Assembly (NCBI GenBank): GCA_046351515.1
Contig: JAXLYJ010000005.1
Span: 370,892 to 434,891 of the forward strand
Direction of reading: 5' to 3'
Length of the DNA stretch: 64,000 nucleotides
DNA from: Polyangiales bacterium
GTDB lineage: Bacteria; Myxococcota_A; Polyangia; Polyangiales; Ga0077539
The notes beneath the pieces are model-generated. The model searched no databases. It saw only the letters and a list, made by a program, of their open reading frames with translations, and was not told where the DNA came from. The translations under genes were made by a program, and so were the position numbers. Shown piece after piece: positions 7,904 to 43,891 of the stretch. How positions within the stretch are numbered: the first letter of the stretch is position 1; every line of letters starts with the position of its first letter.

Positions 7904-8121
7904 ACTCGATGTGTTGACGGCAATTCGCGCGCTCGAGCTTGCGCCGCGCGCGGTTCGTTGCCACCGTGTCGCCCGCTTCTCGCTCTGCCACCCAACGGTG
8001 TTCGGCACCGCCGAAGAAGCTGCCATCAGACTCACAGGGGCGACGGTCCTACCCCGAGGACCGTAGGGCGGGATGGCAAACAGCGCTCCCCAGCACCGCC
8101 GCGTGCGATGGAGGATGTGTC

Positions 8122-20639: not shown

Positions 20640-20803
20640 GAAGAGAGCGCAACGATTTCACAGCGCGAGGGTGTTGTCGCGGTCAGCCGCGATGGGGCGA
20701 GCGCGAGTCCAACGCCCGGCATCAGCCCGCAGAACACGAGACGAAAGCGTTTTGCGCTGCGATGGCTCTCCCCCGTCGAAGCGCATATCTCGCCGGGCGG
20801 CGC

Positions 20804-21553
20804 TCACCAGCACCCCGCCGCGCCCCATCGAAGCGCGAGCACCGTCTCCGCGGCTTCTGCGTCGTCGTGCTCGAGCGCCGCGTAGCCGATCAGCGCGCGC
20901 CCGGCGCAGTCGGCGATCGCGGCGTGCTCGCTCCGCGCGCTCGCTTCGATCGGAACGATCCATCCTCCTCGCGTCACCCACGCACGCACGAGCACGGTCA
21001 CGTCGCTCGCCCCGCGGTAGCAATCGCGCAGCGGTCGTCGCTCGATCGCGCGGCGCAGAAGCTCTCGCGTCGCGCAGCTGGTCGCTCCGTCCGCTGGCGC
21101 TGCGGCAAACCATCGCTCGAAGCACACGCGCCGCTGCGAGCGCGCGAGCGACCAGTGTTCGGCGAGCGCGCTCTCCCACACGCGATACGCGTGCACGCCG
21201 AAGCCGAAGCCGGTCGAAATCGGCCCGAGCGGATATTGATGAATCCACACCGCGGGTTGGTACGAAAACGTCGGGTCGCGATCGGGCGCCTCGGACCGTT
21301 GGTTCGCGGCGTCGAGCCGCGTTTCGTGAACCGGCTCGCATCCCGCATTGGCGTCGCGAACTCGCTCGCCGTTGCTCCACCGTGGCCAGTCGACACGAAT
21401 GCGACGCGCGCTCGTTGGCATGGTGAGCGGAGGCGATCGAGTCATTTCCGTTGTCGTGGGGCGCTGCTCGATGGAGGGGCGCGACGCACAACCTGTCGCG
21501 AGCATGACGGTCAGACCGACGGAACAGCGGCGAATCTGCAAGCTGGCCAACAT
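20804..21553 (-). CDS. Hypothetical lipoprotein
   Basis: Start chosen at the ATG at 21551-21553 (MLASLQIRRCSVGLTVMLATGC lipobox). Upstream part of ORF 20804..21976 is Ser/Arg-rich noise. C-terminal domain has conserved-looking W/Y-rich stretches. Confidence 0.45.
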   Translation of the reverse strand: MLASLQIRRCSVGLTVMLATGCASRPSIEQRPTTTEMTRSPPLTMPTSARRIRVDWPRWSNGERVRDANAGCEPVHETRLDAANQRSEAPDRDPTFSYQPAVWIHQYPLGPISTGFGFGVHAYRVWESALAEHWSLARSQRRVCFERWFAAAPADGATSCATRELLRRAIERRPLRDCYRGASDVTVLVRAWVTRGGWIVPIEASARSEHAAIADCAGRALIGYAALEHDDAEAAETVLALRWGAAGCW

Positions 21554-21725
21554 TCGAAATCCGACCGACACCGCCACTCGTAATCCGTTCTCCGACGAAT
21601 CAGGGCGGTCGTTCGGCAGGCGTTGCGTGCGGTCGACGAAAAAACTGCTAACCCCATCGAGACGCGAAAACGATCGCCTATTTAGGTGATGTGACATATA
21701 ACGAGGCGTTGGAGGACGTTCGGCG

Positions 21726-22790
21726 TTGGACGCGTACGAAGTGCGATTTCGATCGATCACCGAGCTCGCGGAGGCGTTCGCCACGGATCTGGCACAGCAT
21801 CGTCTCTTCGTGCGCGGCGCGCATCGCACCCGCCTCGGCGACGACATCTCGATTCGCATGGTTCTTCCCGAGACGCAGTCGGTGCTCACGCTCACGGGGC
21901 TGGTCCTCGAGCACGTGAAGGACGACGCTCGCGGCGAGGGTGCGCTGGTCGTGCTGCTCGATCTGCTCGACGACACCGTCGCGCTGATCGACCTGTTTAT
22001 CTCCGAGCGACTCGACGTCTCGCAGCCCGATCGCGAGCCGCCGAGCGTCGACCAACCGCTCGACGTGCTCGTGGTGGGCGGAGAGCCGTTTGTGACTCAA
22101 GCGACGCGCGCGTTTCGGCGCGATGGAGATCGTGTTCGGTTCGCGACCGACGGCTTCGAGGCGCTCGCCGCGGCGATTCGTCGACGGCCGGACGTGATCT
22201 TCTCCGACGTCACGATGCCGCGCATGGATGGCTGGCAGTTCTTGCGGATGTTGCGCAACAACGAGCGTCTCGCGGCGGTGCCCGTCGTGTTCACCAGCGA
22301 GCTGGCGAGCGAGCGAGAGCGCTTGCGAGGGTATCAGCTCGGGGTCGACGACTATCTTCCGCGGACGTGCCGACCGAGCGAGCTGCGATCGTGCGCGGAC
22401 CGGCTCGTGCGTCGAGCGCACACGATCGCGCCCGAGCCGCGAAAGCGCACGGCGATCCGCGGAGAGCTCTCACACGTCTCGCTCGCAGCGCTGCTCTCAC
22501 TGCTCGAGCTCGAACAGCGATCAGGGTCGATCGCGGTCAACGGATCGATCTCGGGAGTGCTGTGGATCGGCGACGGCCGCGTGCTCGACGCGCAAGTGTC
22601 CAAGCCGATCATGGAGCGTCACTCGACCGCGTTCGAGCACGCGTTGGCGTTGCTCAGCGCGACGGACGGCGAGTTCGTCTTCAACGCCGCCGCTGCGCGC
22701 CAGCAAGGCGCGCTCGACGTCTCGATCTCCGAGCTCGTCGCAGAGCACGCTCGGCTGCTCGCCGAGCTCGCACAGCGCAAGACGTCGTAA
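21726..22790 (+). CDS. Response regulator with N-terminal PilZ domain, central receiver (REC) domain and C-terminal DUF4388-like domain
   Basis: TTG start. The receiver core is recognisable as LDVLVVGGEP...DVIFSDVTMPRMDGWQFLRMLR...PVVFTS; the phospho-acceptor Asp is in DVTMPRMDG. N-terminal RxxxR-like PilZ region. Typical myxobacterial architecture. Confidence 0.7.
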   Translation: MDAYEVRFRSITELAEAFATDLAQHRLFVRGAHRTRLGDDISIRMVLPETQSVLTLTGLVLEHVKDDARGEGALVVLLDLLDDTVALIDLFISERLDVSQPDREPPSVDQPLDVLVVGGEPFVTQATRAFRRDGDRVRFATDGFEALAAAIRRRPDVIFSDVTMPRMDGWQFLRMLRNNERLAAVPVVFTSELASERERLRGYQLGVDDYLPRTCRPSELRSCADRLVRRAHTIAPEPRKRTAIRGELSHVSLAALLSLLELEQRSGSIAVNGSISGVLWIGDGRVLDAQVSKPIMERHSTAFEHALALLSATDGEFVFNAAAARQQGALDVSISELVAEHARLLAELAQRKTS

Positions 22791-25460: not shown

Positions 25461-28142
25461 TTACCGCACCACGATGCGCGCTGCAACGACTCTGTTCTCG
25501 CGGTCGTGATCTCCGCCGCTCACGCGCATGCGATCGTCGCCTTGGAAGAAGCCGATGAAGACCGAGTACGTGCCGGCCCGACAATATCCAGGGATCGTGA
25601 TCTCTTGCTCGTCGTGGATAATGTCGCCCGGAAGCCAATTCGACACCGCGTAGCGCCCGCCAGCCGGCTCGTGATCGCCGTTGATGCGCGGGCACTGACC
25701 GTCGACGTGCACGAAGATCTGCCAGTTTCCTGACATCTCGCGCAGCACGCGGAAGTGGTACTTGATCTTGAACGAGCCGCCGACGGGCACGTACGACATG
25801 CCCTTCGAGTCGAGGTTGTAGCCCAAGAACTCGAGGTTCTCGTCGAAGCGCGCGGGCTGCTCGACGAAGCGACCGTTCTCCTGCGTTCCGTGCGCGTGCC
25901 AGTGATCGTTGCGCGTGAGCAAGCGATCCTGGCTCATCACGATTTCGTCCAGCGGATTGCGCGAGCCGCGCTCGCCCGCGTCCGACGCCGCGACGTAGAG
26001 GTTCGAGTTGCTCGCGTCGAGCACGGGGATGTTGTTGCGCTGCCCCTGCGGCTGCGCGTTGCGAAAGGCACGATTGAGCCGAGAGAAAACCCGCGCATCG
26101 ACGAGCATGAAGCGTCGGTCCGTGGGCGAGCCCGTGCGCAGCCACTCGACCGCTTCGGTCTCAGTGTCGATGTCGCGCACCGGAAAGTCCGCGTAGTAGC
26201 CAGCGTTGCGCTCTTCGGACGAGCCGCCGTAGCGCGCGACGCGCTCGTGCGGACGGCGCATCTGCTTGATCACCGCCCACACTCCGCGCGGCGAGAGGTG
26301 CTCGCTGAGCGCGGGGATGTAGAGCTTGGTGAACATCAGCGCGACGAAGATCGCGCCAAACGCCGTGATCCCGACGCGCGAGCCGCGCAGCGCGACCATC
26401 CACGGACGGGTGCGATCGCCGATCCAGCCGAAGAAGTTCCAGAGGAGGATGAAGCCGTAGACGCCTCCGACCACGACGAACGGAATCGCCGCAAATCCCA
26501 AGAACGCGGCCTTCGTCTGCGTCCCCATGTTCGCGGTGGTCAGCGCCGAGCCGCCGCACGTGCCGATCAGCGCGACCGCGCTCGCCAGCGCCCACGCGCG
26601 GAAGCTCGCGAGGATCCCCGTCCCCGTGAGCGCGTGCCACGACCGCCACAGCCCCTTGGCCGCGAGCTCGTCGCGCTCTTTGCGAGCGCCCGCTTCGACC
26701 TCGAGCATCCACTCGTAGGGGCGCTTGAGCCCGAACGCCTGCACCGTTCCGCTGCCCTGAAAGAACGCAGGCAAAGCGATGGCGATGTACGCGACGCCCA
26801 TCAGCAAGAAGTACGCTTCACCGGGCGCGCTGCCCTTGAAGAGATGGCCGATCGCCGCTCCCTTCTGCGCCCCGAGCCACTGAAAAATGCTCTTGTTGGG
26901 CTGGTTGTCCTGCGACCAACGAAAGCCGTCCGGAAACGCAGGACCGCCGTCGGGCAGCCCCAGCGCGGCGTACGAGCTCTTGGGAAACAAGAGGTAGTCG
27001 CGCATCATGATCACGGTGAAGAAGGTCACGCCCGCCGTGACGATCTTCCAACCGATGGCGGAGCGCTCAGCGTCGCGAAGCGCGATGGCCGCGGCGATCG
27101 CGAGCGGAGCGGCAGCCACGAACGGCGACGGACCGAACTGCTGCAGGTGAAACCCTTGCAGCCCAAACGCCACCAGCGCAGCGCCGGCCGCGCTCAAGCG
27201 AAGGCCCGCTTCACGCCACGCTTCGTCCGTCGCGACGACCGAGCCCTCGCGGCCGATCTCGCTGGCGTCCATCGGAGGCGCCGCAGCCAGTCGCGCCAGT
27301 CCGAACGCCACGAGGCCCGTCCACGGAAAGAGCGCGTGGCCCACGTGCTCGATGAGCGAGTCGTGCGTCGGAAGCCCCGTCGGCGGCCGGGAGTCCGCGC
27401 CCACGCCGACGAGCCAGCTGTAGTGCTCGAGCGGGAGCTTCACCGCCGCGCGCGAGGCCGCGAGCCCGAGCACGGCGCCCACGACAACGAGCACGAGGCC
27501 CGTGTTTCGCGTGGTGGGATCCTCGTCCTTCCAGCGAAACAGCGGGACGATTCCCACGCCGACGAGCACTGGGACGACGCCGAGCATCGCGCCGCCCGCT
27601 TGCACGGCGAACAGCGCAGCCACGAGCACGAGCAGCGCGCGCGCTTTGTAGAGGTTTTGCAAGAGGGGCTTGTCCGCGGGTGGCGGACGGCAGAACAGCG
27701 TCACCACCGCGCTGGCGAACAACAGCGTAAACGCGCTCTGCGCCACGCCGCCGCCGAACATCTGCCGCGCGTTCATGAAGACGAGCGGCATGGAGGCGTA
27801 CGCGGTTCCTGCGAACGCGGCGGTGCGAGCGTCGCTCGCGGACCATACGGCGGCCGCGAGCGCGAGCGTCGAGAGCGCTGCGAGCAGGGCCGTCGGCATG
27901 CGTCCGCCGGACTCGCTCGCGCCAAAGGAGCGAAACCCAGCGCGCACCATCGCGATCTGCGCAGGGGGACGGTTGTTGAGGACCTCCGATGCTTGCGTGG
28001 TGCCGCGCGCGGCGTCCGCGACGCGAAGCTCGGATGGCTGCCAGATGCCGAAATTGCCGAGGCCCGTGACGATCACGAGCAACGCGACGATCAGCGGCGC
28101 GGTCAGCGCTTGGAGTGGACCCTTCGAAGGAGGAAAGGACAT
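25461..28142 (-). CDS. Large polytopic membrane glycosyltransferase, family 39-like (ArnT/PMT-like) with a C-terminal extracytoplasmic domain
   Basis: About 890 aa with more than 12 TM helices in the N-terminal 600 aa and a soluble C-terminal 250 aa. Start taken at ATG 28140-28142 (MSFPPSKGPL); the ORF track uses a TTG at 28163. Family assignment is by architecture only. Confidence 0.55.
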   Translation of the reverse strand: MSFPPSKGPLQALTAPLIVALLVIVTGLGNFGIWQPSELRVADAARGTTQASEVLNNRPPAQIAMVRAGFRSFGASESGGRMPTALLAALSTLALAAAVWSASDARTAAFAGTAYASMPLVFMNARQMFGGGVAQSAFTLLFASAVVTLFCRPPPADKPLLQNLYKARALLVLVAALFAVQAGGAMLGVVPVLVGVGIVPLFRWKDEDPTTRNTGLVLVVVGAVLGLAASRAAVKLPLEHYSWLVGVGADSRPPTGLPTHDSLIEHVGHALFPWTGLVAFGLARLAAAPPMDASEIGREGSVVATDEAWREAGLRLSAAGAALVAFGLQGFHLQQFGPSPFVAAAPLAIAAAIALRDAERSAIGWKIVTAGVTFFTVIMMRDYLLFPKSSYAALGLPDGGPAFPDGFRWSQDNQPNKSIFQWLGAQKGAAIGHLFKGSAPGEAYFLLMGVAYIAIALPAFFQGSGTVQAFGLKRPYEWMLEVEAGARKERDELAAKGLWRSWHALTGTGILASFRAWALASAVALIGTCGGSALTTANMGTQTKAAFLGFAAIPFVVVGGVYGFILLWNFFGWIGDRTRPWMVALRGSRVGITAFGAIFVALMFTKLYIPALSEHLSPRGVWAVIKQMRRPHERVARYGGSSEERNAGYYADFPVRDIDTETEAVEWLRTGSPTDRRFMLVDARVFSRLNRAFRNAQPQGQRNNIPVLDASNSNLYVAASDAGERGSRNPLDEIVMSQDRLLTRNDHWHAHGTQENGRFVEQPARFDENLEFLGYNLDSKGMSYVPVGGSFKIKYHFRVLREMSGNWQIFVHVDGQCPRINGDHEPAGGRYAVSNWLPGDIIHDEQEITIPGYCRAGTYSVFIGFFQGDDRMRVSGGDHDRENRVVAARIVVR

Positions 28143-28215: not shown

Positions 28216-29812
28216 TCAGGGGCTCTGTGGTGGCGCGGTCGCAGCCGTGCCGGGTTGCGCCGCGGCGCCTTCCACGCGAATCGCGTCGAGCTCTGCGTCG
28301 AGCTGCGCGACGAGCGCGGTGAACTGCGGTCGCAAATTCGCCGGGACTTGCCGCCTCCACGCGAGAAACGGCGCTCCGTCGATGAACTGCCCCGAGCGCT
28401 TGACGCTCCAGTGAAGGTGCGGGCCTGTGCTGCGCCCGGTCGATCCGACATAGCCGATCACCTGCCCGACGCGCACGCGCTGACCGAGCGAGATCGACGG
28501 CTCGAATCGAATCAAGTGCGCGTAGCCCGTCTCGAGGTTGAGCTGGGGATGCGAGAGGCGAACGAGGTTTCCCGTAGGGCCGCCCCATCCGCGAAACACC
28601 ACGATCCCGTCGCCCGCGGCCATGACCGGCGTGCCCGCAGGAGCTCCGAAGTCCGTCCCCTGATGGGGCATCACGCGATGCAACACCGGGTGCATGCGGT
28701 GCGGGTTGAACGGCGAGGTGATCCTCGGCGGATTGACCGGCGGTTGCAGCGCGCCCTGCACTTGCGCGGTTCCTTGCGCGTCGAAGTAATCGCCGCCGCG
28801 CGGTCCCGTCTGCATCCAATACCCGCGCTTGTTGCGTCCGCTGGCCGCGCGAAGCTCGATCGCTGTGATCTTCGCGTAGCGAAAGAAGCTGTCGTTGAGG
28901 CGCTCTTCATCGACGATCAACCGCACCGAGTCGCCTTCGTGCAGCGACGCGCCCAGGTCCAGCTCTCGAAACACCTGCTGCAACAGCGGAACGATGTCCG
29001 CGTGCAAGTGCGCCGCGCGCAGCGTGTCCTGCAGCGAGCCGCGGACGACGAAGCCGGCGCCGACGCGGATCGTGGATTTCACCACGCGGATTCGCTCTGC
29101 GCTGCACGAGTTGTCCGCCGCGACCGTGACCGCGATCACCTCGCTCTCGCCGCGACGGTACTCGACCCTGCGCAGCGCGTTGTCGCGCGTCGGATCGCGC
29201 TGCGCGACGACCACGTCCGTCGGCTGAAGCGCCCGCATGTTGACGAGCGTGCGCATCGACGAGATGACTTTGGTCTGGATATTTCCTGTCACTCCGAGCA
29301 GGCGGAGCACCTGCGGCAGCGTGCGTCCTCGCCCGAGCCGCTGATGCGTCGCGATCCAACCCTCGGGCGTCTGTGAAGAGCGGCGACGGAGCCACCGCGC
29401 TCGTCACGTAAGCGCCGCCGCCGTCCGCGCCGCCGTCGCCGTTGTCGAGGGACAGCGCGATCGCAGAAGAGCCCGTGTTTCCTCCGTCCGATGCGCTGGG
29501 CGTGGCCGCGTGCGCCGACGCGCCGAAGCCCGCGCGCGGCAGTCGCACTTTGTTCACCGCGACCGCGACGATCAGTCCGATCGCGCCGAGCGTCGCGCCG
29601 AGCCCGCCCGCGACCGCGCCCACGCGCGTCACGATGCGCCGCGTGTACATCGGCGCCTCGGGCAGCTGCACCATGGTCTTGGGCTGGCGCACGACCGGGT
29701 CTTCGCCGCTCGGAAGCTCGTCGAGATCCAGCGGCTCGGGCTCCGATGGGCGAGGCGGCGGCGCGACCACGCGTCGCGGCGGTTCCTCGATCGGTTCGGG
29801 CAGGTGGGCCAT
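28216..29812 (-). CDS. M23-family (LytM-like) metallopeptidase with N-terminal cytoplasmic segment and TM helix; apparent frameshift near 29370-29404
   Basis: C-terminal HxxxD...HLHWSV M23 motifs (PHQGTDFGAP, GPHLHWSVKR) in frame of 28216..29310. N-terminal MAHLPEP...TM(VGAVAGGLGATLGAIGLIVAVAV) in frame of 28907..30538. Stop in the downstream frame at 29404-29406 forces a +/-1 shift. Confidence 0.6.
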
Positions 29813-30231
29813 CGGCCGCTGGAGTGTGGCAGTGTTCGCGCCCTCGTGCACCCGCTCCTGTTCGTCCTTGCCCTCGCGCGCCCGACGGAGGTCCTCGAAG
29901 AGTGGACCCTGCTCGAGACCGCGCCCGTGCGCGAGCTCGTCACCGCGCGCGTCGTGTACGACCGTGATCGCGGCCCCGAAATCGCACTTCCAACGGTCTT
30001 CGACAGCGACCGCGCGCCTCCCTCGGTCGAACTCGTCGGCCACCTTCGACCGTTGGTGGTCACGCGCGTCGGAGCCTCGTGGCACGCGCGTTTGCCCGAG
30101 CCGACGAGCACGCCGCGGCCGCGCGTCGTGGTGCGATCGGTGCGTGAGGCGAGGGACGTTCGGCTGTTTCAGCTCGGATGGCCAGTCACGAACGGTGAGG
30201 CGATTCGCAGGGTGGCGATCGTTCCTCGCGG

Positions 30232-30801
30232 GTGGATGCAGGTGATGAGCGAGGGGTGGACGTGCGCCGACGATTCGATCTCGTCGATCGCGTGCGTCTC
30301 GATCGACACTCGTCCCAACCCGCTGCGCGTGCGCGTCTCGCCGCTCGCCTCTTCGCGCGGCGCGTGGATCGCGACGGCGGTCTTCTCCTCGCGCTCTGCG
30401 CGTTGTTGACGCTGCGAAAGCCGAAGACCGAGCGCCTGGCCGCTGCATCGACGTGGCTCGTCGCGCTGATCGCGACCAGCTCGGTCGCGCTCTCGCTCGT
30501 CGGCGCTCGCTGGACGTCCTGGAGCATCGCGCTCTCAACCGCAGCGCTCAGCGCGACGGCGCTCGCCGCGGTCGTGGGCTCCGATGACGGCGCTCGCCGC
30601 ACCGGCGCGATCGCTGCGCTCGCCATCGCGTTGCTCTCGGTCTTCGACGGGCGACCTTCGCTCTCGTTGGCGGCGCTCGCGGCGGCGTTGTTTGCGCTCG
30701 CTGGCGCTCGATGGATCAGCCGCGCGTCCCCGCGTCCGAGCCCACCGCGCACGGATCCACGACCATCGGAGGCGGAGGAGTCGCGTCCCCCGACACCGTG
30801 A
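30232..30801 (+). CDS. Possible small polytopic membrane protein (hypothetical)
   Basis: Ala/Leu-rich hydrophobic segments (3-4 predicted TM). Start uncertain; overlaps the 3' end of the next minus-strand gene. Confidence 0.3.
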   Translation: MDAGDERGVDVRRRFDLVDRVRLDRHSSQPAARARLAARLFARRVDRDGGLLLALCALLTLRKPKTERLAAASTWLVALIATSSVALSLVGARWTSWSIALSTAALSATALAAVVGSDDGARRTGAIAALAIALLSVFDGRPSLSLAALAAALFALAGARWISRASPRPSPPRTDPRPSEAEESRPPTP

Positions 30802-31887
30802 TCGGGACGAGCTCGAAGCGAAACGCGACGCTCATGGCGCTGCAATCCGCAGCGGGGTTGGGCACGCCGCTCGCGGTGATGTCGAGCGCCGCTGCGACGC
30901 CGAGCAGAACGGTCGTCCATTCCATCGTCGACTGTCGCTCTTGGCACACGCCGAAGGTGCGGAGGTCTTCGAAGATCTGATTGCGCGCCCAGATCGCGCT
31001 CAGATCCAAGGTGGTCACGTTGCCCATCGCGTCGAGTTGGCCCGAGAGGCGGATGTCCGTGAGCGTGATCTGCGTGCGAATTCGCGCGTTGGCGAAGTAC
31101 AGCGGGGCGTTGTTCGGAAACGGCATCACGATGGTGCCGCACGAGGAGAACGCGTCCGTGGTCGAGACGCGGATCGTGCGACCGTCGGCGCCGTAGGCGA
31201 GTCCGCGGTGGATGCTCCACTCGTCGCGTCCGTCCCAGTTGGGCATCGCGGTGGGGTTGGACGGCGGGTGACCGTCGACGAGCGGCAAGAGTTCGACGGT
31301 GATCGAGGCGTCATTTGCCCGCCAAAATCGCGGAGGCGCAGACCGATCGTCGACGACCCGTCGGCGATGTTGCTGTTGAGATCGCTCTCGTTGAACGAGC
31401 TGCCGAAGACGCCGACCTGGCCGATGACGCTGCCGAAGGCGTTGTCGCGGCCGTTCATCCCGTCGGCGAGCACGAGCGGCGAGCGGCACGGGACCATCGG
31501 CGCGCCGCCGCCCGGCGGGTTGGGGGTGGTGCACATTCCATCGCGATCGAAGCCGATGCCCGACCATGCGCCGCCTGCGCCCAACAACACGCGACGCACC
31601 GCGAAGACCTTGGTCGACCCGATGCTGTTCGCAAGCCCCGCCGGCAGCGACGGAACGATCGCCAAATCGCAGCCCGCTCCCGCGTCGCGCGTTCGCTGAG
31701 CACACGCGGCGGGGCCTCCGTCGCCGCTCGCGTCGCTGCTCGCGTCGTTGCGCGGCGCGAGGGCGTCGTTGCTCGCGTCGCCGCGGCCCATCAGCCGCGC
31801 GTACTCGGCGCGATCGAAGGCCTGACACGCGTGGGTCGCGGGGATGGCCAAGAGCGCAGCGCACAGCGTGAGCGTTCGGTGTTTCAT
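30716..31887 (-). CDS. Secreted Cys-containing hypothetical protein, paralog 1 of a tandem pair; apparent frameshift near 31305-31320
   Basis: Signal peptide MKHRTLTLCAALLAIPATHAC. N-terminal part is in the frame of 31126..31887 and the C-terminal part in the frame of 30716..31864. Shares DAG(A)GC...LAI(V/I)P, DGxxGRDNAFG, WDGRD(E/T)W and C-terminal motifs with paralog 2. Confidence 0.5.
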
Positions 31888-31897
31888 CGCGGAGCCT

Positions 31898-33069
31898 CTA
31901 AGGATCGACCGGCGCGCCGCCGTCGGAATTGCAGTTGTTCAGCTGAGGAAACGAGGTGCTCGCGACGCCTTCGACCGTGACCGGGCGCCACACCAACCGA
32001 AGCGCGAGCGTGGCTGCGTTGCACGCGACAGCGCTGTTTTGCGAGAGGTTGTTGAGCACGTCGAAGGCCTGCGAGATCGCGTCGATCCGGTCGTTGAACG
32101 TGCCGCTCGGACCGATCGGGGCGGGCAGTAGTCGAACCACGGCAGCGACTCGATGACGTTTTGCCTCGTCCACACGCCGATCAGATCGGTCGTCCCTCCG
32201 TTGGCGGGATCGAACGCGCCGGCGAGCTTGACGAGGTCGACCGACAACATGCGCAGCCGTCCGGTGTTGAGAAACGCGAGCGGAACGCGATCACCAAACG
32301 ACGCGACGAAGTAGCCACACGCCACGAACGCGTCGGACGAGCGCGCGCGAGGCGTCGTGGTGGACGGCGCGAACGACAGCCCGGGATCGATCGTCCACGT
32401 GTCGCGACCGTCCCAGGTCAGCGCCGTCGAGCCCGCAGGAGGGCGACCGTTGGTGAGCGTGAGCCAGTCGACCGAGACGTTGCGATCGTCGCCGCCGCCC
32501 CACTCGGTGATGCGCAATCCGAGCGCCAATCTCCCGGTTTGAAGCCCGTCGGTGACCTCGGTGTCGACGAGCGTTCGAGTGATGAGGAGGCTCGTCGCGA
32601 TCGCTCCGCCAAACGCGTTGTCGCGGCCATCGAGGCCATCGGCGACGATCTGCATGGGGCGGCACGACTGCTGTTCGGGCGTCGCCGTCGGAGCGGTGCA
32701 GCGTCGATCGACGTCGAAGCCGATTTGGCTCCAGTTTCCGAAGGAGCCAGGGCCGATGTCGAGTCGCTGCAACGCGAGGGTGTACGTGCGGCCGTTCGTC
32801 GGCTGATCGGCGAGCGCGCTCGGAGGCGCAGGGATGATCGCGAGCGAGCAGCCTGCGTCGTCTGTGGCGGTGCGCTGCAGGCACGCGCCTGCGCCGTCTT
32901 CGACGCTCGCCTCCGAGCCGACCGCGTCGAGCAGCGCGTGATAACGATCGCGGTCGAACGCCTTGCATCCAGCGAACGAGCACAGAATCGATCCGACGAT
33001 GAGCGAGCGAACGCGCACGACCCTCGAAGGGTAGCGCATCCGCGGCCTGGATCGCTGCACTGCAAACAA
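31898..33069 (-). CDS. Secreted Cys-containing hypothetical lipoprotein, paralog 2 of the tandem pair; apparent frameshift near 32140-32150
   Basis: ...LIVGSILCSFAGC lipobox. The body is in the frame of 31939..33069; the conserved C-terminus (GTFNDRIDAISQAFDVLNN...VACNAATLALRLV) is in the frame of 31898..32173, after the WFDYC motif. Confidence 0.5.
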
Positions 33070-33100
33070 GCGCCGCTCAGAATGGTACGCTGCCTTCGCA

Positions 33101-34216
33101 GTGGCGAAGAAATCAGTCGTGTGGGTCGTAGGTCGCGCGCCAGACTGCGACGTCGTCGTGGATCACCCGACGGTGAGCGGTCGGCACCTGCGAATTTCCT
33201 GGCAGGGTGATCGTGTGCTCATCGAGGACCTCGCGAGCGCCAACGGCACGTTCGTGGGAGAGCAGCGCGTCTCGAAGGCGACCGTTCGACCGGGCGATGA
33301 CGTGATGATCGGCCAGGTGGCCTTTCCGTGGGGCCACGCTTCGCTCAAGCCGTTTCTTCGCATGGCGGCGAAGGGCACGATCGTCGCGCCGCCGACGCTC
33401 GCGGGAAACGTCGCGCGATCGACGCTTCGAATCGTGGGCGTGTTCGTGGGCATCGGCGCAGCGCTGATCGGAGGGCTGTGGTTGACCGAGCCCGGCCGCA
33501 ATTTTCTGGCGTATTTGCGGCTGCAAGAGCAGGCGGCGACGGCGAGCACCGACGAAGAAGCGTTTGTCCGGACGACGATGGTTCCGCAGCTGCGCCGAGC
33601 GCTCGATCCGATGGAGCCCACCGTGCGCAACACCGCAGTGCAGCTCGCGGCGCGCAACGAGGGCACGTTTCGGGTGGAGCAGGTGGCCTCGATTTGGTCG
33701 TACGTGCGAGAGCACTGGCGGTATGTCAACGATCCGCGGGGGCGCGAGTACGTCGCGCTTCCTCGCGAGTCGATCCAGAACAACTACGCGGGCGACTGCG
33801 ACGACTTCGCGGTGACGCTCGCCGCGATGGTGCGCGCGATCGGCGGCGAGGCGCGCGTCGTGTTTATGGAGGGATCGCGCGGCGGCCACGCGTACGCAGA
33901 GGCGTGCGTGCAAGAGCCGGCGAACACCGTGGCGACGAAGATCGCGCAGTTCTATGGGCGCAATTGGGCGCGATACGCGTCGGGCCGACAGCACATCGCC
34001 TATCGCTCGTCGCAAGCGTGCCCCGTGTGGCTCAACCTCGATTGGAACGCGAACGTCCCCGGCGGCGACTACGAGCCCGAGCGCTGGGCGGTCGCCGCGT
34101 ACGCTGACGGTCACACCGAGGTGCTCGCGGTGGCGCCCGGCGCCGAGCCGACGGCGCGCGCGCGACAAGCGGCGACGGCGAGCGCTCCTCAGCGGCTCTC
34201 GACGCGCGGACGCTGA
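33101..34216 (+). CDS. FHA-domain protein with TM helix and C-terminal transglutaminase-like (papain-fold) domain
   Basis: N-terminal FHA (VVGRAPDCDVVVDHPTVSGRHLRISWQGDRVLIEDLASANGTFVGEQRV); TM LRIVGVFVGIGAALIGGLWL; transglutaminase core GDCDDFAVTLAAMVRAIG...GGHAYAE. Confidence 0.75.
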   Translation: MAKKSVVWVVGRAPDCDVVVDHPTVSGRHLRISWQGDRVLIEDLASANGTFVGEQRVSKATVRPGDDVMIGQVAFPWGHASLKPFLRMAAKGTIVAPPTLAGNVARSTLRIVGVFVGIGAALIGGLWLTEPGRNFLAYLRLQEQAATASTDEEAFVRTTMVPQLRRALDPMEPTVRNTAVQLAARNEGTFRVEQVASIWSYVREHWRYVNDPRGREYVALPRESIQNNYAGDCDDFAVTLAAMVRAIGGEARVVFMEGSRGGHAYAEACVQEPANTVATKIAQFYGRNWARYASGRQHIAYRSSQACPVWLNLDWNANVPGGDYEPERWAVAAYADGHTEVLAVAPGAEPTARARQAATASAPQRLSTRGR

Positions 34217-34233: not shown

Positions 34234-36269
34234 CTACGCGGCGCGCTCGACGAGTCCGATGCGCGCGAGCAGCGCGTCTACGGTGGCGTCGCGGCCCATG
34301 AACTCGCGAAACAGCACGGCGGGGTCTTCGCTGTCGCCTCGAGAGAGCACGCTCTTGCGAAACGCCTCGCCGGTGGCGCGGTTGAAGATGCCCTCGCGCT
34401 CGAAGCGGGTAAACGCGTCGGCGTCGAGGACCTCGGCCCACTTGTACGAGTAGTAGCCGGCCGCGTACCCGACCGGGTCGGCGAACAAGTGGTTGAAGCT
34501 CGCGATCATCGCGTAGTCGTCGGGCAGCGGCGTGGCGGCGAACTGGCCCATCACTTCGCGCGCGAAGCGCACGACGTCGCCGTGCTTGGCGGGGTCGTAC
34601 GTGCGGTGCAGCTCGAGGTCCACCGTCGCGAACGAGAGCTGACGCATCTGCATCGTCGCTTCGCGAAACGTCCGCGCGCGCTTCATCTTGGCGAACAGCT
34701 CGTCGGGCAGGCGCTCGCCTGTGGCGTGATGCTTGGCGAGCAGCTCGAGGGCCTCGCGCTGCCAGCACCAGTTTTCATGGATCTGCGAGGGAAGCTCGAC
34801 GAAGTCCCACGCGACGCGGGTGCCGACCATTCCTCGGATGTCCACCGACGAGAGCGCGTGATGAAGGAGGTGTCCGAACTCGTGAAAGAGCGTCTCGACC
34901 TCGCGAAACGTGAGCAGCGCGGGGCGCTCGGCGGACGCGGGCGTGACGTTGGCGCAGAAGAGCCCCACCTGCGGCCCCTCGCTCGGCAGCGACGAGAGGA
35001 TCCCGTTCATCCACGCGCCGTCGCGCTTGTTCTCGCGCGGGTACAGGTCGATCGCGAAGCGGCAGAGCTCGCGCTCGCCGTCGAAGATCGAGAACGCGCG
35101 CACGCTCTCGTGATAGCGCGCGGCGTCTTCGCGCTCGCGCACCGAGAGGCCGTAGACGCGCTCGATCACCGAGAACATTCCGCGGACGACGGCGTTGGCC
35201 TCGAAGTACGGCCGCAGCATCTCTTCGTCGAAGGCGTACCGCGCGAGCCGCATCTTCTCGGAGTAGTACGAGACGTCCCACGGCTCGAGCTCGGGCGCCT
35301 TCGGCCCTTCGAGCTCGCGGCGAAACGCGAGCAGCTCGGCCTTCTCTCGCTCGAAGAACGGGACGGTCCTCCGCCGCAAATCATCGACGAATCGCGAGGC
35401 GGTCTCTCCGGTCTTCGCCATGCGATCGGCGAGGACGTAGTCCGAGAAGTCTTTGAAGCCCAAGAGCTGCGCTTGCTCTTTGCGAAGCGCGAGGATCTCT
35501 CCGAGCAGCGGTCGATTGTCGAACGGCTCGCGCGTCGCGCTGGTGTTGTACGCGTGCCACAGCGTCTTTCGCAGCGCGGCGTCGTTGGCGTACGTGAGCA
35601 CCGCGAGGTAGCTCGGCGACTGCAGGGTGAATCGAAAGCCCGTGAGTCCCTTGCTCTTCGCGCTCTCTTTGGCCATCGCGAGCGCCGAGGGCGGCAGGCC
35701 CGCGACCTTCGACTCGTCGCTGATCACGATGTCGAACGCGGCGTGCGAGTCCAGGACGTTCTGCGAGAACTTCGTGGTGATCTCGCTCAGGCGAGCGGCG
35801 ATCGCGGCGAGGCGCTCTTTGCCTTCGGGGGCGAGCTCGGCGCCCTGTCGACGAAAGCCGTCGAGCGTCTTGTCGAGAAAGCGCTTCTGCGGCCCGGTGA
35901 GCGCGCGCGCTTCGTCGGTCTTCGCGTAGCTCGAGACGGCCTGCCACAGCGCGGGGTCCAAGGGAATCTTCGAGTAGAACTCGCTCACCTTCGGCTGAAC
36001 GTCGTTGTACGCGTCGCGCAGCGCCGGCTCGTTCATCACGGCTTCGAGGTGTGAGACCACCGCCATCGCCCACTCGAGCTCGCGGGTGCTCTCGTCGAGC
36101 GCGCGCAGCGTGTTGTCGAAGGACCGCGGCCCGGTGAGCGCACAAATCGCCGCGATGCGCTGCTTCGAACGCGCGATCAACGCGTCGATGGCGGGACGAA
36201 CATGCTCAGCGCGCGGACGCGCTCGTACGGGGGATCGATGCTCAGTTCGAGCAGAGGGTTGTCGCTCAT
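34234..36269 (-). CDS. M3-family oligopeptidase A / peptidyl-dipeptidase (PrlC/Dcp-like); N-terminal 20 codons lie in a different frame (apparent 1-nt indel near 36205)
   Basis: HEFGHLLHH zinc motif; end-to-end similarity to E. coli OpdA. MSDNPLLELSIDPPYERVRA (ATG at 36267-36269) aligns to E. coli MTNPLLTPFELPPFSKIRPEH but is frame-shifted relative to the body ...EHVRPAIDALI. Confidence 0.85.
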
Positions 36270-36324
36270 GGAGGGGCGGAAGGATACCCTCTCGGCTGCC
36301 GCCCGCGAGGGCGACGGAGGCAGT

Positions 36325-36673
36325 CATGGCAAAGCTCACCCTCGACACCATCAAACGACTCGCACCGGACTCCAAGAGCGTCTCGAACGCCAAGAGCGTC
36401 GCCGACCCGCGCAAGTGGAGCGCCCTCGGCATCGACGAGGGCGGAGTGCTCTGGGGCGAGTACAACGGCAGCGAGCGCTACTCGCTCTACGCGTCGACGA
36501 GCGCGCCGTCGTCGGACTCGGGCTGCTCGTGTCCGTCGCGCAAACGCCCGTGCAAACACGTCCTGGGGCTGCTCATGCTCGCCGCGGGCGGCCACCCGAT
36601 CGAGACCAAAGCGATGCCCGATTACATTCGTGACGAGGCCAACGAGGCCTACTACGAATCGACCTTCGAATAG
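36325..36673 (+). CDS. SWIM zinc-finger protein (small, stand-alone)
   Basis: CSCPSRKRPCKHVLGLL = CxC...CxH SWIM signature; 116 aa; start ATG at 36325. Confidence 0.65.
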
Positions 36674-36685
36674 TCCCTGCGCACC

Positions 36686-37627
36686 ATGGCGACGAAGAAA
36701 AAGACCGAGCCGCTCAGCGCTGCGACGACGCACTCCGACGATCTGTCGCTCTCGGACAAAGAGCTCACGCAGCGAGTGTTCGAGCCCGATCGAACGACGC
36801 TCGAAGCCACGCGCGACGCGGTGCGAGACGTCGATGATCCCGCAGAGGCGTGGGAGCTGTTGGCTGGGCGAGGGATCGTTCCGAGCGAGTGGCTCGGGGA
36901 TGGTGATCGCGTGTTTGCCGAGGACGAGCGGCCGCCGGCGCTCGCCGAGCGAGGCTTCAACGACCAGCCGACGCGCGCGGCGATCCTGCGCTACCTCGAG
37001 GTCGGTCCGCGACTGTGCGACGCTCCTCCGACGGTGATCGCAGCGTGCTCGCTCGCGTGCGACATCCCCGGCGTCACCACGGCCGAGCGCGTGGCGCGAG
37101 AGGCTGTTCGACGCCTCGCTGCGTGGGGCGCGCCGCAGCCGTCGCGGGTGTGTTGGCGCATCGTCGACCCCGAGGACTGGGAGACGCAGCCCGGTGATTT
37201 TCGGCACATGCCCGCGGCGATGGCCGTCGGTGACGCGTACGTGCCGACGCCCACGACCGAGCGAACGATCATGCGCGCGAGGCTCTACGACTTCGGGACG
37301 CCCGCCTGGCGCGCGGCGTTCACGTGGGAGTGCGCCGCGCTCTGGCGCCTCGTGTCCAAAGGCAACCGCGTGATCGCCGCGAGCACGTCGCTCGCGCCCG
37401 ACTCGATCGCCGCGAGCGGATACCCGCCGATCCCGTCGGAGCTGAGAGCGAAGCGCTTCGCTGACGTTCCCAACCCGTTCGAGCCGCTGCTCTCGCTGTG
37501 GGCCGCGGGCTACGCGCTCGACGCGATCACCGAGCACACGATCGTGCTCGCGGCGCCGCGCGTGAAAGAGAAGCGAGCGGCGATCACCACCCCGAAGAAG
37601 CGTGCGTCCAAACGCAGCGCCGAGTGA
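36686..37627 (+). CDS. Hypothetical protein, co-directional partner of the SWIM protein
   Basis: 313 aa with no recognisable motif. Starts 12 nt after the SWIM gene stop. Convergent with the C1-TerB gene (stop codons abut at 37627/37628). Confidence 0.5.
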   Translation: MATKKKTEPLSAATTHSDDLSLSDKELTQRVFEPDRTTLEATRDAVRDVDDPAEAWELLAGRGIVPSEWLGDGDRVFAEDERPPALAERGFNDQPTRAAILRYLEVGPRLCDAPPTVIAACSLACDIPGVTTAERVAREAVRRLAAWGAPQPSRVCWRIVDPEDWETQPGDFRHMPAAMAVGDAYVPTPTTERTIMRARLYDFGTPAWRAAFTWECAALWRLVSKGNRVIAASTSLAPDSIAASGYPPIPSELRAKRFADVPNPFEPLLSLWAAGYALDAITEHTIVLAAPRVKEKRAAITTPKKRASKRSAE

Positions 37628-38887
37628 TCACTCTTCGATCTGCCACTCTTCGACGAGCTGCGCGAGAAGTCCCTCTTCGTCTTCGTTGAGCTCGTCCGAG
37701 CCGGCGATCTCCTGCGCCTTGCTGATGATGTTCGCGAGCATTCCCGCGGACAAGTGCTCGCCGAAGATCTGCACGGTCTCGTTGAGCAGCTCTTCGTTCT
37801 CGACGTGGCGCGCGGCGAAGCGGAGCACCTTTTGCGGGTCGAGCTCGGAGCCGATTCGCTCGAAGGTGTCCTGCAAGTGCGCGGCGAGCGTCTGCAGCTC
37901 TTCGTCGCTCACGTCTCCGTCAGCGTTGGCCACCACCAAGAAGAGCTGCGCCAGGCGACTCTCGAAAGGAACCTCTCCGCACGCGTCGTGAAACGCCTGA
38001 AACTCGTCCTCGCTCATGTTCGCGAACTCGTTGTCGATCTCGGGCAAGACCGACTCGTCGTCCTCGGACCAGCCCTCATCCGCGGCGACCGCGTCCACGC
38101 GGCGGATGATCCACGAGTCGCCGTTGTTGAAGCGCTCGTTCACGAGATAGTCGTACGGGATGTAGCAGTAGCCGTCGTCGCCCCAGTCGGTTCCCCACGA
38201 GTTGCGGACGATGAAGACTCGGTCTTGATCGCTGTATCCGACGGCGAGCATCGCGTGTCCGCCGTGCGATTCGCGCGACGATTCGCGGGGCGAAGGCATG
38301 GGAACGAGCCCCGGCTTTCGGTGCTTGTCGAACGAGCGAAACAGCGAGATCCCGAAGATGATCGGGTAGCCCTCGGCGAGCGCGCTCTTCCACGCCTCGA
38401 GGCGCGTGGGCACCACGGCGGTGTCCTCGATGAGAAACTCCGAGGCCTCTTGGTACGCCTCGTCGCTCGGCTGCTCATTGACGATCTCTGCGTCGAACGG
38501 CCACGTCGCTTCGGAGCACGCGCCGTACTGCTTCAAGCTCTCGATGAGCGAGCCGATCACCGAGCCTTCGTCCTCGTTCTCGATCCCGTCGACCGCGCGG
38601 CCGTTGTAGTAGATGAACAGTCGGCTGACGTCGTAGGCCTCTTCGCCGAGGTGGCGTTTGACCAGGTATTCGTACGCTCCGGCGACGGCGTTGGCTGCGC
38701 ACGAGTTGGTGTCTTCTTGGTTCTCGACCTCCGTGAGAAACGGTCGGAGGTCGACGCGGCGAGGCAGCTTCGAGCTCGCGGCGGAGGCGCTCGGCGCCCA
38801 CGTTCGCGTCCCTGGTTTCGGAGCGGCGTACCGATAGCCCGAGACCTGTCGGCTGCTTCCATCGGCGCGGTTGATGATGAAGCCCAT
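37628..38887 (-). CDS. Cytoplasmic papain-like (C1) cysteine peptidase fused to a C-terminal TerB-like domain
   Basis: Q...NSCAANAVAGAYEY (catalytic Cys), GGHAMLAVGY (His) and NSWGTDWGDDGY (Asn/Trp) C1 motifs. No signal peptide. C-terminal 130 aa LFLVVANADGDVSDEELQTLAAH... resembles the TerB/DjlA-N fold. Confidence 0.7.
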   Translation of the reverse strand: MGFIINRADGSSRQVSGYRYAAPKPGTRTWAPSASAASSKLPRRVDLRPFLTEVENQEDTNSCAANAVAGAYEYLVKRHLGEEAYDVSRLFIYYNGRAVDGIENEDEGSVIGSLIESLKQYGACSEATWPFDAEIVNEQPSDEAYQEASEFLIEDTAVVPTRLEAWKSALAEGYPIIFGISLFRSFDKHRKPGLVPMPSPRESSRESHGGHAMLAVGYSDQDRVFIVRNSWGTDWGDDGYCYIPYDYLVNERFNNGDSWIIRRVDAVAADEGWSEDDESVLPEIDNEFANMSEDEFQAFHDACGEVPFESRLAQLFLVVANADGDVSDEELQTLAAHLQDTFERIGSELDPQKVLRFAARHVENEELLNETVQIFGEHLSAGMLANIISKAQEIAGSDELNEDEEGLLAQLVEEWQIEE

Positions 38888-39007: not shown

Positions 39008-40042
39008 TTACTCCGCGATCACGACGGGGACGGGGTTCGCTTGCACGTTCACGTTCACATGCACCTGCAGCGGCTGCACGGGTTGCACGGGGAGCACGGG
39101 CACCACGACTTGCTGCGGGGTCGGATACACCACGGGCTGCGAGTACGGGTTCACTCGCACGGGGCGGAGCACGGGCTCGGGGTACACCACCAACGGTTGC
39201 ACGTACGGCTGCACGTAGGGCTGCGGATAGACCACCGGCTGCACATACGGCTGCGGATAGACCACGGGCTGCACGATGGGTTGAACCACGGGCTGCACAT
39301 ATGGCTGCGCGATCGGCTCGGCGGGGCCGTCCCATCCGAGGTCGTGCGGCGCTTCGGCGAGGTGCGAGCCCAGGCGATTGACCGCGACCGCGAGCGAGCC
39401 GTCGAAGTTTGCCTCGAGCTCTTGGATCACTTGCACGAAGTGAGACTGCAGCCGAGCGCGCTCTTGCTGCTGCGCCTGCCACTCATTCTGCACGGGAATT
39501 CCCTGGGGAATGTACTCATACGGCTCTTGGATGCGGATGATCTCTTCGCGCGTGAGGCCCGACGAGAGTGACCAGTCGACGAGCGGTCCTGCGCCCACGT
39601 CGGCGAAGCGCACGAAATTGTTGGCGCGAGACACTCGGTCCACCAGTACGCGATGGCCCGAGTGCGCGAGGAGATTCGCCACGGCGCACAGCCTTCCGTT
39701 CGCGTCGACGAACACGTTGAGCCGCCCCGGTCGCACGCGATTCTCGGGGAAGACTCCCGCTTGCATGTACGCGCGCAGCCACCCGATGTTTTGCCTTCGC
39801 TGCGTCGCGAGGTAGTTGCGCCACGCTTGAACGTTGGGCGCGACCGTCACGACGGGCCGCCACTGTCGAGGCGCCACGCGCGCCATGGTGTCCATGGTCT
39901 CGTCGGGGATCGGCGCGCGCATCATCACGGGCGCTCCGGCGACGACAGTTTGCAGCGTCTGTGCGTCGGCGTGGCGAGCGCCTGCAGAGATCGCGACGGC
40001 GACGAGACCAACGAGCACTCGACGAACGGACCAACGCTTCAT
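39008..40042 (-). CDS. Secreted protein with C-terminal QPYVQPVV(Y)P tandem peptide repeats
   Basis: Signal peptide MKRWSVRRVLVGLVAVAISAGARHADA. C-terminal 110 aa made of 8-10 copies of a P/V/Q/Y-rich 8-mer. Confidence 0.55.
   Translation of the reverse strand: MKRWSVRRVLVGLVAVAISAGARHADAQTLQTVVAGAPVMMRAPIPDETMDTMARVAPRQWRPVVTVAPNVQAWRNYLATQRRQNIGWLRAYMQAGVFPENRVRPGRLNVFVDANGRLCAVANLLAHSGHRVLVDRVSRANNFVRFADVGAGPLVDWSLSSGLTREEIIRIQEPYEYIPQGIPVQNEWQAQQQERARLQSHFVQVIQELEANFDGSLAVAVNRLGSHLAEAPHDLGWDGPAEPIAQPYVQPVVQPIVQPVVYPQPYVQPVVYPQPYVQPYVQPLVVYPEPVLRPVRVNPYSQPVVYPTPQQVVVPVLPVQPVQPLQVHVNVNVQANPVPVVIAE
39100..39310. repeat. Coding tandem repeat (about 24-nt unit, GGCTGCACRTAYGGCTGCGGATAGACCAC-like) inside the 39008..40042 gene
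   Basis: Multiple imperfect copies are visible directly in the sequence and encode the QPYVQPVV repeats. Confidence 0.6.
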
Positions 40043-42516: not shown

Positions 42517-43891
42517 ATGGATCCGAGCCCGTGGGCACTTGAACGAGTCGGCCTCGTCGTCGCCGAGCGTTATCGCATCGAGCGATTGTTGGGCGAGGGC
42601 GCGATGGGCGCGGTCTTCGGTGCGCGTCACGTCAAGCTCGGTCGACCGGTGGCCATCAAGCTCATGCCGCCCGAGGACAAGCACGAGGCCGAGGCGGTGC
42701 AGCGCTTCGAGCAAGAGGCGGTCGCAGCGGCGTCCGTCGCGCGTCGAGGCGTCGTCGAGGTCTTGGACTTCGGCGTCGATCCCGTCGTCGGCGCGTACAT
42801 CGTGATGGAGCTGCTCGAAGGCGAGTCGCTCGAAGCGCGGATTCGTCGCGAGCGAACGCTCTCTCCGACGATCACGGTCTCGCTGCTCGCGCCGGTGCTC
42901 GACGCGCTCTCGTCTGTGCACGCGCGGTCGATCGTGCACCGGGATTTGAAGCCCGCGAACCTCTTCGTATCGCGCAACGAAGAGGGCGAAGAGGTCGTGA
43001 AGATCCTCGACTTCGGCGTCTCGCGGGTGCGTGATGGACGACGCGTTCCGACGACGGCGGTGGGCATCGTTGTGGGGACGCCGCGCTTCATGGCGCCCGA
43101 GCAAGCGCGGGGCGTCGCAGACCTCGACGCGCGCGCGGACCTCTACGCGATCGGCGCCATCGCCTACGCGTGCCTCGCAGGAAAGCCACCGTACGCAGAC
43201 CTCGGCTACGTCGACGTGATCTCTGCGATCCTCTCGGGGCCGCCCACGCCGTTGACGCAGCTCGTGGCCAATGTCCCTCAAGGGCTGCTCGCGGTGATCG
43301 AGAAGGCGATGGCGCGCGATCGCGAGGCGCGCTTCGCCAACGCCGCAGAGATGCGCGCGGCGTTGCTCGTCGCGGCGAGCTCGAACTCGAAGCCGCCCCC
43401 CGAGCCGAACGTCACCGTCGCCGCGCGCCCGAGCGCGACGATCGACAGCCCCGTCACGAAAGAAATCGCCGGCGTCACTCGCCCCAGCGCTCTGTCGTCG
43501 CCGCCGGTCTCGGTCATTCCCGCGACGAAGTCCGCGCAGCCCGAGGACCCCAAGGCGCCCATCCTCGCGCACCTCGCGATCCCGAACGCCGCGTTGCCGC
43601 CGCTCGGCCCCGCTCCCGCCGCGATGCCCGCGCCGTCGCCGTACGCGATCGCGGCGCCGCCCGCGGCGATGTCGCTCGCGCCCGCTCCGCAGCCCGCCCC
43701 GATCGGTGCGCGCTGCGCCGATGGCGGTCCCTGCCAAGAGCGGAGGCCGAGGGTGGCTCGTCGCGCTCGCGTTGATCGTCACGCTCTTCGTCGGGTTCGC
43801 GGCGTTTGCGGTTTGGTACTTCGTGGACGACGACTCGGAGGTGACGACGGGCGCGCGCTCGCTCGCTCCGTGCTCGTCGGCTGCAAGCTGA
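42517..43891 (+). CDS. Ser/Thr protein kinase with C-terminal TM anchor; apparent frameshift near 43700-43740
   Basis: Start at ATG 42517. GEGAMGAVF, AIK, HRDLKPANL, DFG, APE motifs. The C-terminal TM (GWLVALALIVTLFVGFAAFAVWYF) lies in the frame of ORF 43706..43891. Confidence 0.75.

Follow-up and report, generated by a model that had tools for sequence, protein, structure and literature searches.

What could two adjacent genes for secreted proteins of no recognizable family be doing, both apparently frame-broken, directly opposite a gene for a membrane protein with an FHA domain? This question is raised by a 64 000 nt stretch of contig JAXLYJ010000005.1 from a Polyangiales bacterium (hereafter, the window), in which paralog A (30716..31887, minus strand) and paralog B (31898..33069, minus strand) lie head-to-head with a gene (33101..34216, plus strand) encoding an FHA domain, a single transmembrane (TM) segment and a transglutaminase-core domain. 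A preliminary description of this DNA regarded the pair as secreted, Cys-containing paralogs of a novel family, possibly effectors or receptors under phospho-signalling control. We report that A and B belong to a large and hitherto undescribed family of predicted lipoproteins, and we tentatively favour a role for this family outside the cytoplasm, as partner subunits or sensors of membrane proteins engaged in Ser/Thr phospho-signalling.

Four minus-strand open reading frame (ORF) fragments lie within 30716–33069, and the restoration of one base in each gene turned them into two genes. For paralog A, the pieces 31126..31887 (−) and 30716..31864 (−) meet at GGGCAAATGAC (~31316), where a homopolymer is shortened from A4 to A3; putting back one A gave the reading GGQ-N-DAS and a lipoprotein-like product of 390 aa. 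For paralog B, the pieces 31939..33069 (−) and 31898..32173 (−) meet at CCGCCCCGATC (~32121), where C5 is shortened to C4; putting back one C gave CPPPIGP and a lipoprotein of 380 aa from the ATG at 33039, or 390 aa from the TTG at 33069. The intact homolog P0001, which is 97% identical to paralog B, uses the ATG equivalent to 33039. Both repairs agreed residue by residue with intact orthologs, which read DFGG(P/A/Q)NDASITVE across the break of A and CPPPIGP across the break of B. Furthermore, a 3-kb metagenome contig (L030) with 95.07% DNA identity to the window carries both genes intact, with 380 aa for B and 390 aa for A.

The repaired products share 34% identity across 361 aa (BLASTP, E = 2e-60), a paralogy far beyond chance, so the tandem pair of the preliminary description holds, ORF positions included; the motif blocks that it had listed were all present in A and B, and the conserved cysteines are C126, C305, C340 and C370. 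The stop codon of B (TAG, 31898–31900) is separated from the ATG of A (31887) by 10 nt and is followed by GAGG, indicating that A and B form an operon. The spacer to the divergent gene (33040..33100, from the ATG of B to the GTG of the FHA-transglutaminase gene) is 61 bp, and shrinks to 31 bp if B starts at the upstream TTG, in agreement with the head-to-head arrangement described earlier. No sigma54-type promoter with correct spacing was detected upstream of B, only a wrongly spaced look-alike. As a feature of the family, a sigma54 promoter was also rejected, with a single match in 57 kb of upstream sequence, which is the background level. The G+C content was 63–70% throughout the window.

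Judged from sequence features, both A and B carry a signal peptide followed by a lipobox Cys, as expected of bacterial lipoproteins, in line with the secretion claimed for them. The lipobox of B is SFAGC (...LCSFAG-C-K), with Lys at +2. The signal peptide of A ends in THAC before QAFDR (...AIPATHA-C-Q), a weaker lipobox that is atypical at −3 and −2 and has Gln at +2. The Lys at +2 of B fits the correlation with inner-membrane lipoproteins in Myxococcus xanthus (PMC3222651), a rule that is an extrapolation when used on this organism. Nothing pointed to the 'effector' of the preliminary description; A and B are lipid-anchored, and more likely act as partner proteins in the periplasm.

Neither A nor B matched any Pfam-A or NCBIfam family even at E ≤ 1, as the preliminary description had supposed, and among 48 diverse members of the family no Pfam or NCBIfam family was common to more than two at this threshold. 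The gliding lipoprotein CglD was considered as the identity of the family on the basis of an NCBIfam match in one of these 48 members (E = 0.004), and was dismissed because the other 47 lacked it. The family profile gave no match to PDB sequences. Word-indexed searches with single proteins retrieved close orthologs only, seven for B and ten for A, all metagenomic 'hypothetical proteins', and a word-indexed search with a 150-sequence alignment added almost nothing. An exhaustive search of 1.84 billion cluster representatives with a 17-sequence profile detected 2294 at E ≤ 1e-3, 1295 at E ≤ 1e-10 and 33 at E ≤ 1e-30. The named members are all hypothetical proteins from Myxococcota or 'Deltaproteobacteria' metagenome-assembled genomes (MAGs; Polyangiaceae, Sandaracinaceae, 'Myxococcales'), and the G+C content of 79 metagenome loci with family members was 61–74%. 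The distribution, for which the preliminary description had recommended a search, is thus neither small nor local, with approximately 2300 cluster representatives, and only Myxococcota-type genomes were seen. Lacking both a Pfam or NCBIfam model and a relative of solved structure, and with only 'hypothetical' members, the family is undescribed so far.

The typical member consists of a signal peptide, the lipobox Cys, a short conserved motif, an acidic or Gly-rich linker and a domain of ~310 aa. Among 150 members, the lipobox Cys was at least 90% conserved, with a hydrophobic stretch before it, and the motif that follows reads C-x-[AV]-[FY]-D-x-[SA]-L-L family-wide and C-[KQ]-A-F-D-R-x-x-Y in A and B. 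Long-form members of ~525–575 aa (P0028, P0029, P0031, P0041, P0061, P0070, P0077 and P0147; loci L011–L013 and L025) carry, after the signal peptide and ahead of the core, an extra N-terminal domain of ~180 aa that matched nothing in Pfam; ten long-form members gave no Pfam or NCBIfam match at all. The long forms are those found in operons in which a Ser/Thr protein kinase (STPK) gene is followed by genes for a TPR/PEGA membrane protein and the family member. Tandem arrays of members are common (L029, three copies at 4505–8230; L008 and L010; L018; L041).

An AlphaFold2 model of P0001, built on the 150-sequence alignment, reached a predicted local distance difference test (pLDDT) score of 89.9 and a predicted template modelling (pTM) score of 0.84; an earlier model from 17 sequences was mediocre (pLDDT 68), and the 150-sequence model alone was used. 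The model comprises eight long antiparallel strands (~171–359), four helices and an Asp-rich, disulfide-bearing N-terminal region. Foldseek comparison with the PDB gave no match and no similarity to known enzyme folds was found, so that structure prediction and profile searches alike bear out the claim of a novel family. Avidin/streptavidin, the calycin-type eight-stranded beta-barrels and TbpB barrel domains gave weak scores at 9–15% identity, too little to count as evidence of homology, and ~200 further residues of the model, among them the Asp-rich loops and every conserved cysteine, are without equivalent in the avidin/calycin barrels. Residues D111, C126, D140, C305, D327, C340 and C370 were invariant in the family alignment, and C25 (the lipobox Cys), G107, D109, D134, G138, N141, G169, D185, G211 and D213 were nearly so. 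In the predicted structure, an eight-stranded beta-barrel core is accompanied by helices and by loops bearing the invariant Asp/Asn and Cys residues, which may form a site for a metal (Ca2+) or another ligand.

The gene neighbourhoods of the family point to a signalling role. A total of 143 family genes were clustered at ≥45% identity into 38 lineages, 30 of which had informative flanks. An STPK, the TPR/PEGA membrane protein (labelled MID here), an activator with FHA and sigma54 domains or an FHA-transglutaminase protein was encoded within 3 kb of a member in 21 of these 30 lineages, and an STPK in 13. STPK genes occurred at a density of 0.51 per 10 kb up to 2.5 kb from members, against 0.18 per 10 kb at greater distances; compared with the ~12% of lineages expected from the density far from members, the frequency of 13 in 30 corresponded to p ~2e-5, and to p = 0.003 for a background of 20%. 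At L025/L026 and L027, the STPK gene, the gene for a 315-aa TPR/PEGA membrane protein and the family member follow one another with stop/start overlaps of 4–14 bp, and the same order was found at L011–L013, L080 and L099. Permuted trios were detected as MID–member–STPK in L090 and L092, and as member–STPK–MID followed by an FHA-containing enhancer-binding protein in L111. In L029 an STPK gene precedes three tandem members, and L041 shows the order member–STPK–member–member. Enhancer-binding proteins with FHA and Sigma54_activat domains adjoin members in L090, L098, L108–110 and L111, and the sigma54 activator beside the member in L104, which has lost its N-terminus at the contig end, shows Sigma54_activat and HTH_8. 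The neighbouring STPKs are composed of a kinase domain, a Pro/Ala-rich linker, one TM segment and a short low-complexity tail, suggesting that they have no sensor of their own, as nothing but this tail follows the TM segment.

The pair in the window has no STPK or TPR/PEGA neighbour within 3 kb. The window does contain two STPK genes, as noted earlier, at approximately 42517–43882 (+) and 55664–56944 (−), the nearest being ~9 kb off, and the gene for the FHA-TM-transglutaminase protein takes the place of such a neighbour. The predicted domains of this protein were confirmed: the FHA domain (PF00498) covers residues 8–71 (E = 1.3e-19, 70.9 bits against a cut-off of 20.7), one hydrophobic helix lies at approximately residues 111–129, and Transglut_core (PF01841) covers residues 189–271 (E = 3.3e-11, 43.9 bits against a cut-off of 23). 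The phospho-threonine-binding residues GR...SGRH...NGT are present in the FHA domain, whose closest solved relatives are GarA (E = 5.6e-9), OdhI and FhaB. Because an FHA domain is necessarily cytoplasmic and the protein has a single TM segment, the transglutaminase-like domain, with a Cys233/His263/Asp314 triad, is predicted to be periplasmic. Orthologs of this protein were 72–97% identical across syntenic loci. At L002, L003 and L004, which represent one ortholog lineage from three independent samples, the nucleophile Cys233 (~33797; YAGDCDDFA) is replaced with Ala (YAGDADDFA) and the rest of the domain is conserved, so that binding rather than catalysis may be the conserved role of the transglutaminase-like domain. 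A literature search for an FHA-transglutaminase membrane protein, or for a PEGA/STPK/lipoprotein module, returned nothing specific.

The pair lies in a conserved neighbourhood, with the order YhhN, a hypothetical gene, Peptidase_C1, a 307-aa gene, a 115-aa SWIM gene, M3 peptidase, the divergent FHA-transglutaminase gene, B, A, a convergent gene for a 318-aa membrane protein, M23 peptidase, an 893-aa membrane protein, PilZ and NAGPA. This order was seen at L001–L007, L024, L030–L032 and one JGI contig without DNA. The linkage to the FHA-transglutaminase gene was retained in all orthologous loci, down to 37% identity for B, but because the whole neighbourhood is syntenic it is weak evidence alone. 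The ~305–318-aa membrane protein (29846..30801, plus strand) has several hydrophobic stretches and no Pfam match, and its gene overlaps the 3' end of A; it also adjoins a family pair in L008, and in MAG JANNCG01, which has parts of the locus on two contigs, there may be three or four family copies between the FHA-transglutaminase and 318-aa membrane protein genes. Compared with their neighbours, B, A and the 318-aa protein diverge approximately twice as fast (loci L001, L003, L006, L007 and L024); for L024, the identities were 38% for B, 49% for A and 39% for the 318-aa protein, against 63–74% for the M3 peptidase, FHA-transglutaminase, M23 peptidase and 893-aa proteins. This difference suggests that B, A and the 318-aa membrane protein are a co-evolving and probably exposed trio. 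The other conserved neighbours include the M3 oligopeptidase (34234..36293, minus strand) beyond the FHA gene, the membrane-anchored M23 peptidase (28216..29851, minus strand) and the intact 893-aa polytopic membrane protein (25461..28142, minus strand), which has a weak match to PMT_2 glycosyltransferases and gives the neighbourhood an envelope-related character.

Under the role proposed here, A and B would be a co-transcribed, anciently duplicated, lipid-anchored and disulfide-rich periplasmic pair, possibly a heterodimer, since the duplication is ancient and always retained. On the periplasmic side of the inner membrane, family members would serve as partner or sensor subunits. In the window lineage, the partner would be the divergent FHA-TM-transglutaminase-like protein, of which the cytoplasmic FHA domain would read phospho-threonine and the periplasmic domain would bind or act on the A/B pair. 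Elsewhere in the family, this place would be taken by a bitopic STPK without extracellular domain, together with the TPR/PEGA membrane protein, and an FHA–sigma54 activator might sometimes be the output of this set. The signal could flow either inward, by ligand sensing, or outward, by phospho-threonine-gated action on A/B. A bolder version, which we regard as rather doubtful, holds that the family is the missing extracytoplasmic sensor subunit of 'sensor-less' bitopic Myxococcota STPKs, acting with the TPR/PEGA protein and, in the window lineage, rewired onto an FHA-coupled periplasmic transglutaminase-like domain that would serve as a phospho-threonine-gated output or input device. The phospho-signalling link of the preliminary description gained independent support from the STPK/TPR-PEGA and FHA–sigma54 neighbours found in unrelated lineages. 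No family-wide rule held for the FHA-transglutaminase gene, which was found beside no member outside the syntenic clade among the sampled loci; the co-occurrence itself was kept in all orthologous loci of that one clade.

Several points weigh against a partner or sensor role. Localization, physical interaction and signal direction are what we infer, the interaction being drawn from gene neighbourhoods alone. Nine of the 30 lineages have no signalling neighbour, including two large ones (flanked by DAHP synthase, SBF, IscA and aminotransferase genes) and one flanked by dnaE and OmpA genes. Myxococcota genomes are rich in STPKs, and the background density was estimated from short flanks. The metagenome loci were chosen by subfamily-specific peptide patterns, giving a biased sample, and some lineages may share ancestry of the gene arrangement. 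The adjacency to the FHA-transglutaminase gene is limited to one clade with a syntenic neighbourhood of ~17 kb, and could be passive; given that one ortholog lineage has Ala in place of the nucleophile, catalysis on A/B cannot be the general mechanism. In addition, the invariant acidic residues could mark the active site of an enzyme instead of a sensor site, and the presence of the M23 peptidase, the membrane protein resembling a glycosyltransferase of the GT-C fold and NAGPA as neighbours fits an envelope-remodelling role equally well.

These points lead to the alternative that survives best, though we consider it unlikely: A and B would be envelope enzymes or structural proteins, such as a Ca2+-dependent hydrolase or a peptidoglycan or exopolysaccharide binder, working with the M23 peptidase, the polytopic membrane proteins and NAGPA, and kinase and FHA genes would lie nearby by coincidence, the genomes being rich in kinases. 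The conserved block of M23 peptidase, 318-aa protein, 893-aa GT-C-like protein, PilZ and NAGPA agrees with such a function, as do the possible active site in the Asp/Asn clusters, the nine lineages without signalling neighbour and the OmpA-family neighbours at Polyangiaceae loci. However, STPK genes are enriched near members, the STPK/TPR-PEGA/member trio has been retained in three gene orders, in which stop and start codons overlap, the M23 and other envelope genes adjoin members in the one syntenic clade and not beyond it, and the predicted fold resembles no known enzyme.

The frame breaks raise a separate issue, namely, whether A and B are functional genes in this organism. Breaks were detected by tblastn and blastn of the window against intact orthologs from L001, L003, L031 and L002, and could be established only at 22–47 kb, where intact orthologs exist. 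Within the ~25 kb with a reference, seven genes were broken between 22 and 44 kb: A, B, the M23 peptidase gene (2-bp deletion at ~29378), the 318-aa membrane protein gene (G3 to G2 at ~30388), the M3 peptidase gene (2-bp GC insertion at ~36210, breaking the N-terminus), a gene for a 462-aa TonB_C-like protein (frame change at ~23170) and the C-terminus of an STPK gene (frame change at ~43710). Most of the seven indels are 1-bp deletions in short homopolymers. A screen of overlapping same-strand ORF pairs as frameshifts elsewhere in the window was uninformative, because Pfam showed most pairs to be full-length genes in their own right (creatininase, amino-acid permease, ABC-2 components).

The breaks could mean that A and B have genuinely become pseudogenes, by recent inactivation, in a decaying block with the M23 peptidase, the 318-aa membrane protein and the M3 peptidase, an interpretation that we hold to be improbable. 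It has in its favour that at least five other genes are broken besides A and B, with four breaks falling within 2.8 kb (29.4–32.1 kb), that two indels involve 2 bp, unlike simple homopolymer miscalls, and that larger genes nearby are intact (the 893-aa membrane protein, the body of the M3 peptidase, the FHA-transglutaminase protein and Peptidase_C1). Nevertheless, exactly three gaps separate the window from L030, each a 1-bp deletion in a homopolymer of the window, and one of them is harmless, changing AA to A at the stop codon of B (TAA to TAG). The ratios of non-synonymous to synonymous substitution rates (dN/dS) between the window and L030 were 0.068 for B and 0.048 for A, indicating strong purifying selection on both genes in this lineage, and intact copies are known at 97% and 91% protein identity. 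The breakage of approximately one-third of the genes in 25 kb, housekeeping peptidases and a kinase included, would be more usual in a long-read assembly that had not been corrected. Therefore, the frame breaks noted in the preliminary description are true of the sequence, and those in A and B are probably assembly or sequencing errors rather than signs of decay. As the seven indels suggest an uncorrected, error-prone assembly, other apparent pseudogenes in the window should also be distrusted.

The weakest alternative, which we consider very improbable, is that A and B are substrates of the transglutaminase-like domain acting as a periplasmic Cys protease, as LapA is of LapG, with phospho-threonine binding by the FHA domain switching a protease that clips the lipoproteins in their acidic linker (inside-out signalling): the divergent gene arrangement, the Cys-His-Asp triad intact in the window and most orthologs, the long exposed linker after a conserved anchor-proximal helix and a weak match to the LapG-type BTLCP profile (NF045674, E = 0.079) are compatible with it, but this match reached 12.1 bits against a cut-off of 320, the pair is retained in L002/L003/L004 where the nucleophile is Ala, most members elsewhere have no transglutaminase neighbour, and no conserved cleavage motif was found. 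The likeness to the LapD–LapG–LapA system lies in a periplasmic transglutaminase-fold domain with Cys, His and Asp, possible control from the cytoplasm and possible surface or periplasmic targets. The window protein differs in that its protease-like domain is fused through a TM segment to an FHA domain, with phospho-threonine as the input instead of cyclic di-GMP through LapD, in its far lower score on the LapG model and in the loss of the nucleophile in one ortholog lineage.

Some further features were observed around the conserved neighbourhood. The genes for the 115-aa SWIM zinc-finger protein and the 307-aa protein without Pfam match (36326–37615, plus strand) form a conserved pair between the M3 peptidase gene and the gene for a cytoplasmic-looking Peptidase_C1 (37628–38887), and this pair is present at most of the syntenic loci but absent from L002, L003 and L031. 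A stretch of ~1.1 kb at 20954–22089 has no counterpart in the otherwise collinear L031, so this segment has been inserted or replaced; it lies on the 5' side of the PatA_N/response-regulator gene (21726–22790); the N-terminus of the L031 ortholog matches 20762–20953. In a gene for a 317-aa hypothetical protein (39011–40042, minus strand), a length difference of 52 bp plus 2 bp from L031 at ~39305 lies in a short coding motif that is repeated (...CAGCCCGTGGT...), so that the number of peptide repeats varies.

Accessory lipoproteins of envelope signalling are known, such as RcsF, NlpE with CpxA and LpqB with MtrB. As in these systems, a lipid-anchored periplasmic protein is encoded here beside a membrane signalling protein, for which it is proposed to provide extracytoplasmic input. 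The present family differs from them in having no similarity of sequence or fold, in its predicted partners, which are Ser/Thr kinases and FHA proteins instead of histidine kinases, and in that its interactions are read from gene neighbourhoods. Thus, a lipoprotein accessory to a membrane signalling protein has precedents, and the domain itself is new. Cascades of FHA proteins, STPKs and sigma54 activators are well known in myxobacteria. The FHA–sigma54 activators and bitopic STPKs that recur as neighbours of the family resemble these cascades, and the FHA domain of the window protein is of the GarA/OdhI/FhaB type, as in the GarA, FhaA and FhaB systems. We know of no described STPK/FHA–sigma54 or GarA/FhaA/FhaB system that includes a lipoprotein of its own, a membrane component of the TPR/PEGA type or a transglutaminase domain in the periplasm.

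Myxobacteria possess hundreds of eukaryote-like Ser/Thr kinases, many of them single-pass proteins without a recognizable sensing domain, and the signals that they receive are largely unknown. The domain defined here could enter family databases, and the architecture of an FHA domain joined through a TM segment to a periplasmic transglutaminase-like domain is flagged for attention. With thousands of members, a confidently predicted novel fold and operon linkage to kinases, the family of A and B provides a testable candidate for a sensing or partner component of these kinases.

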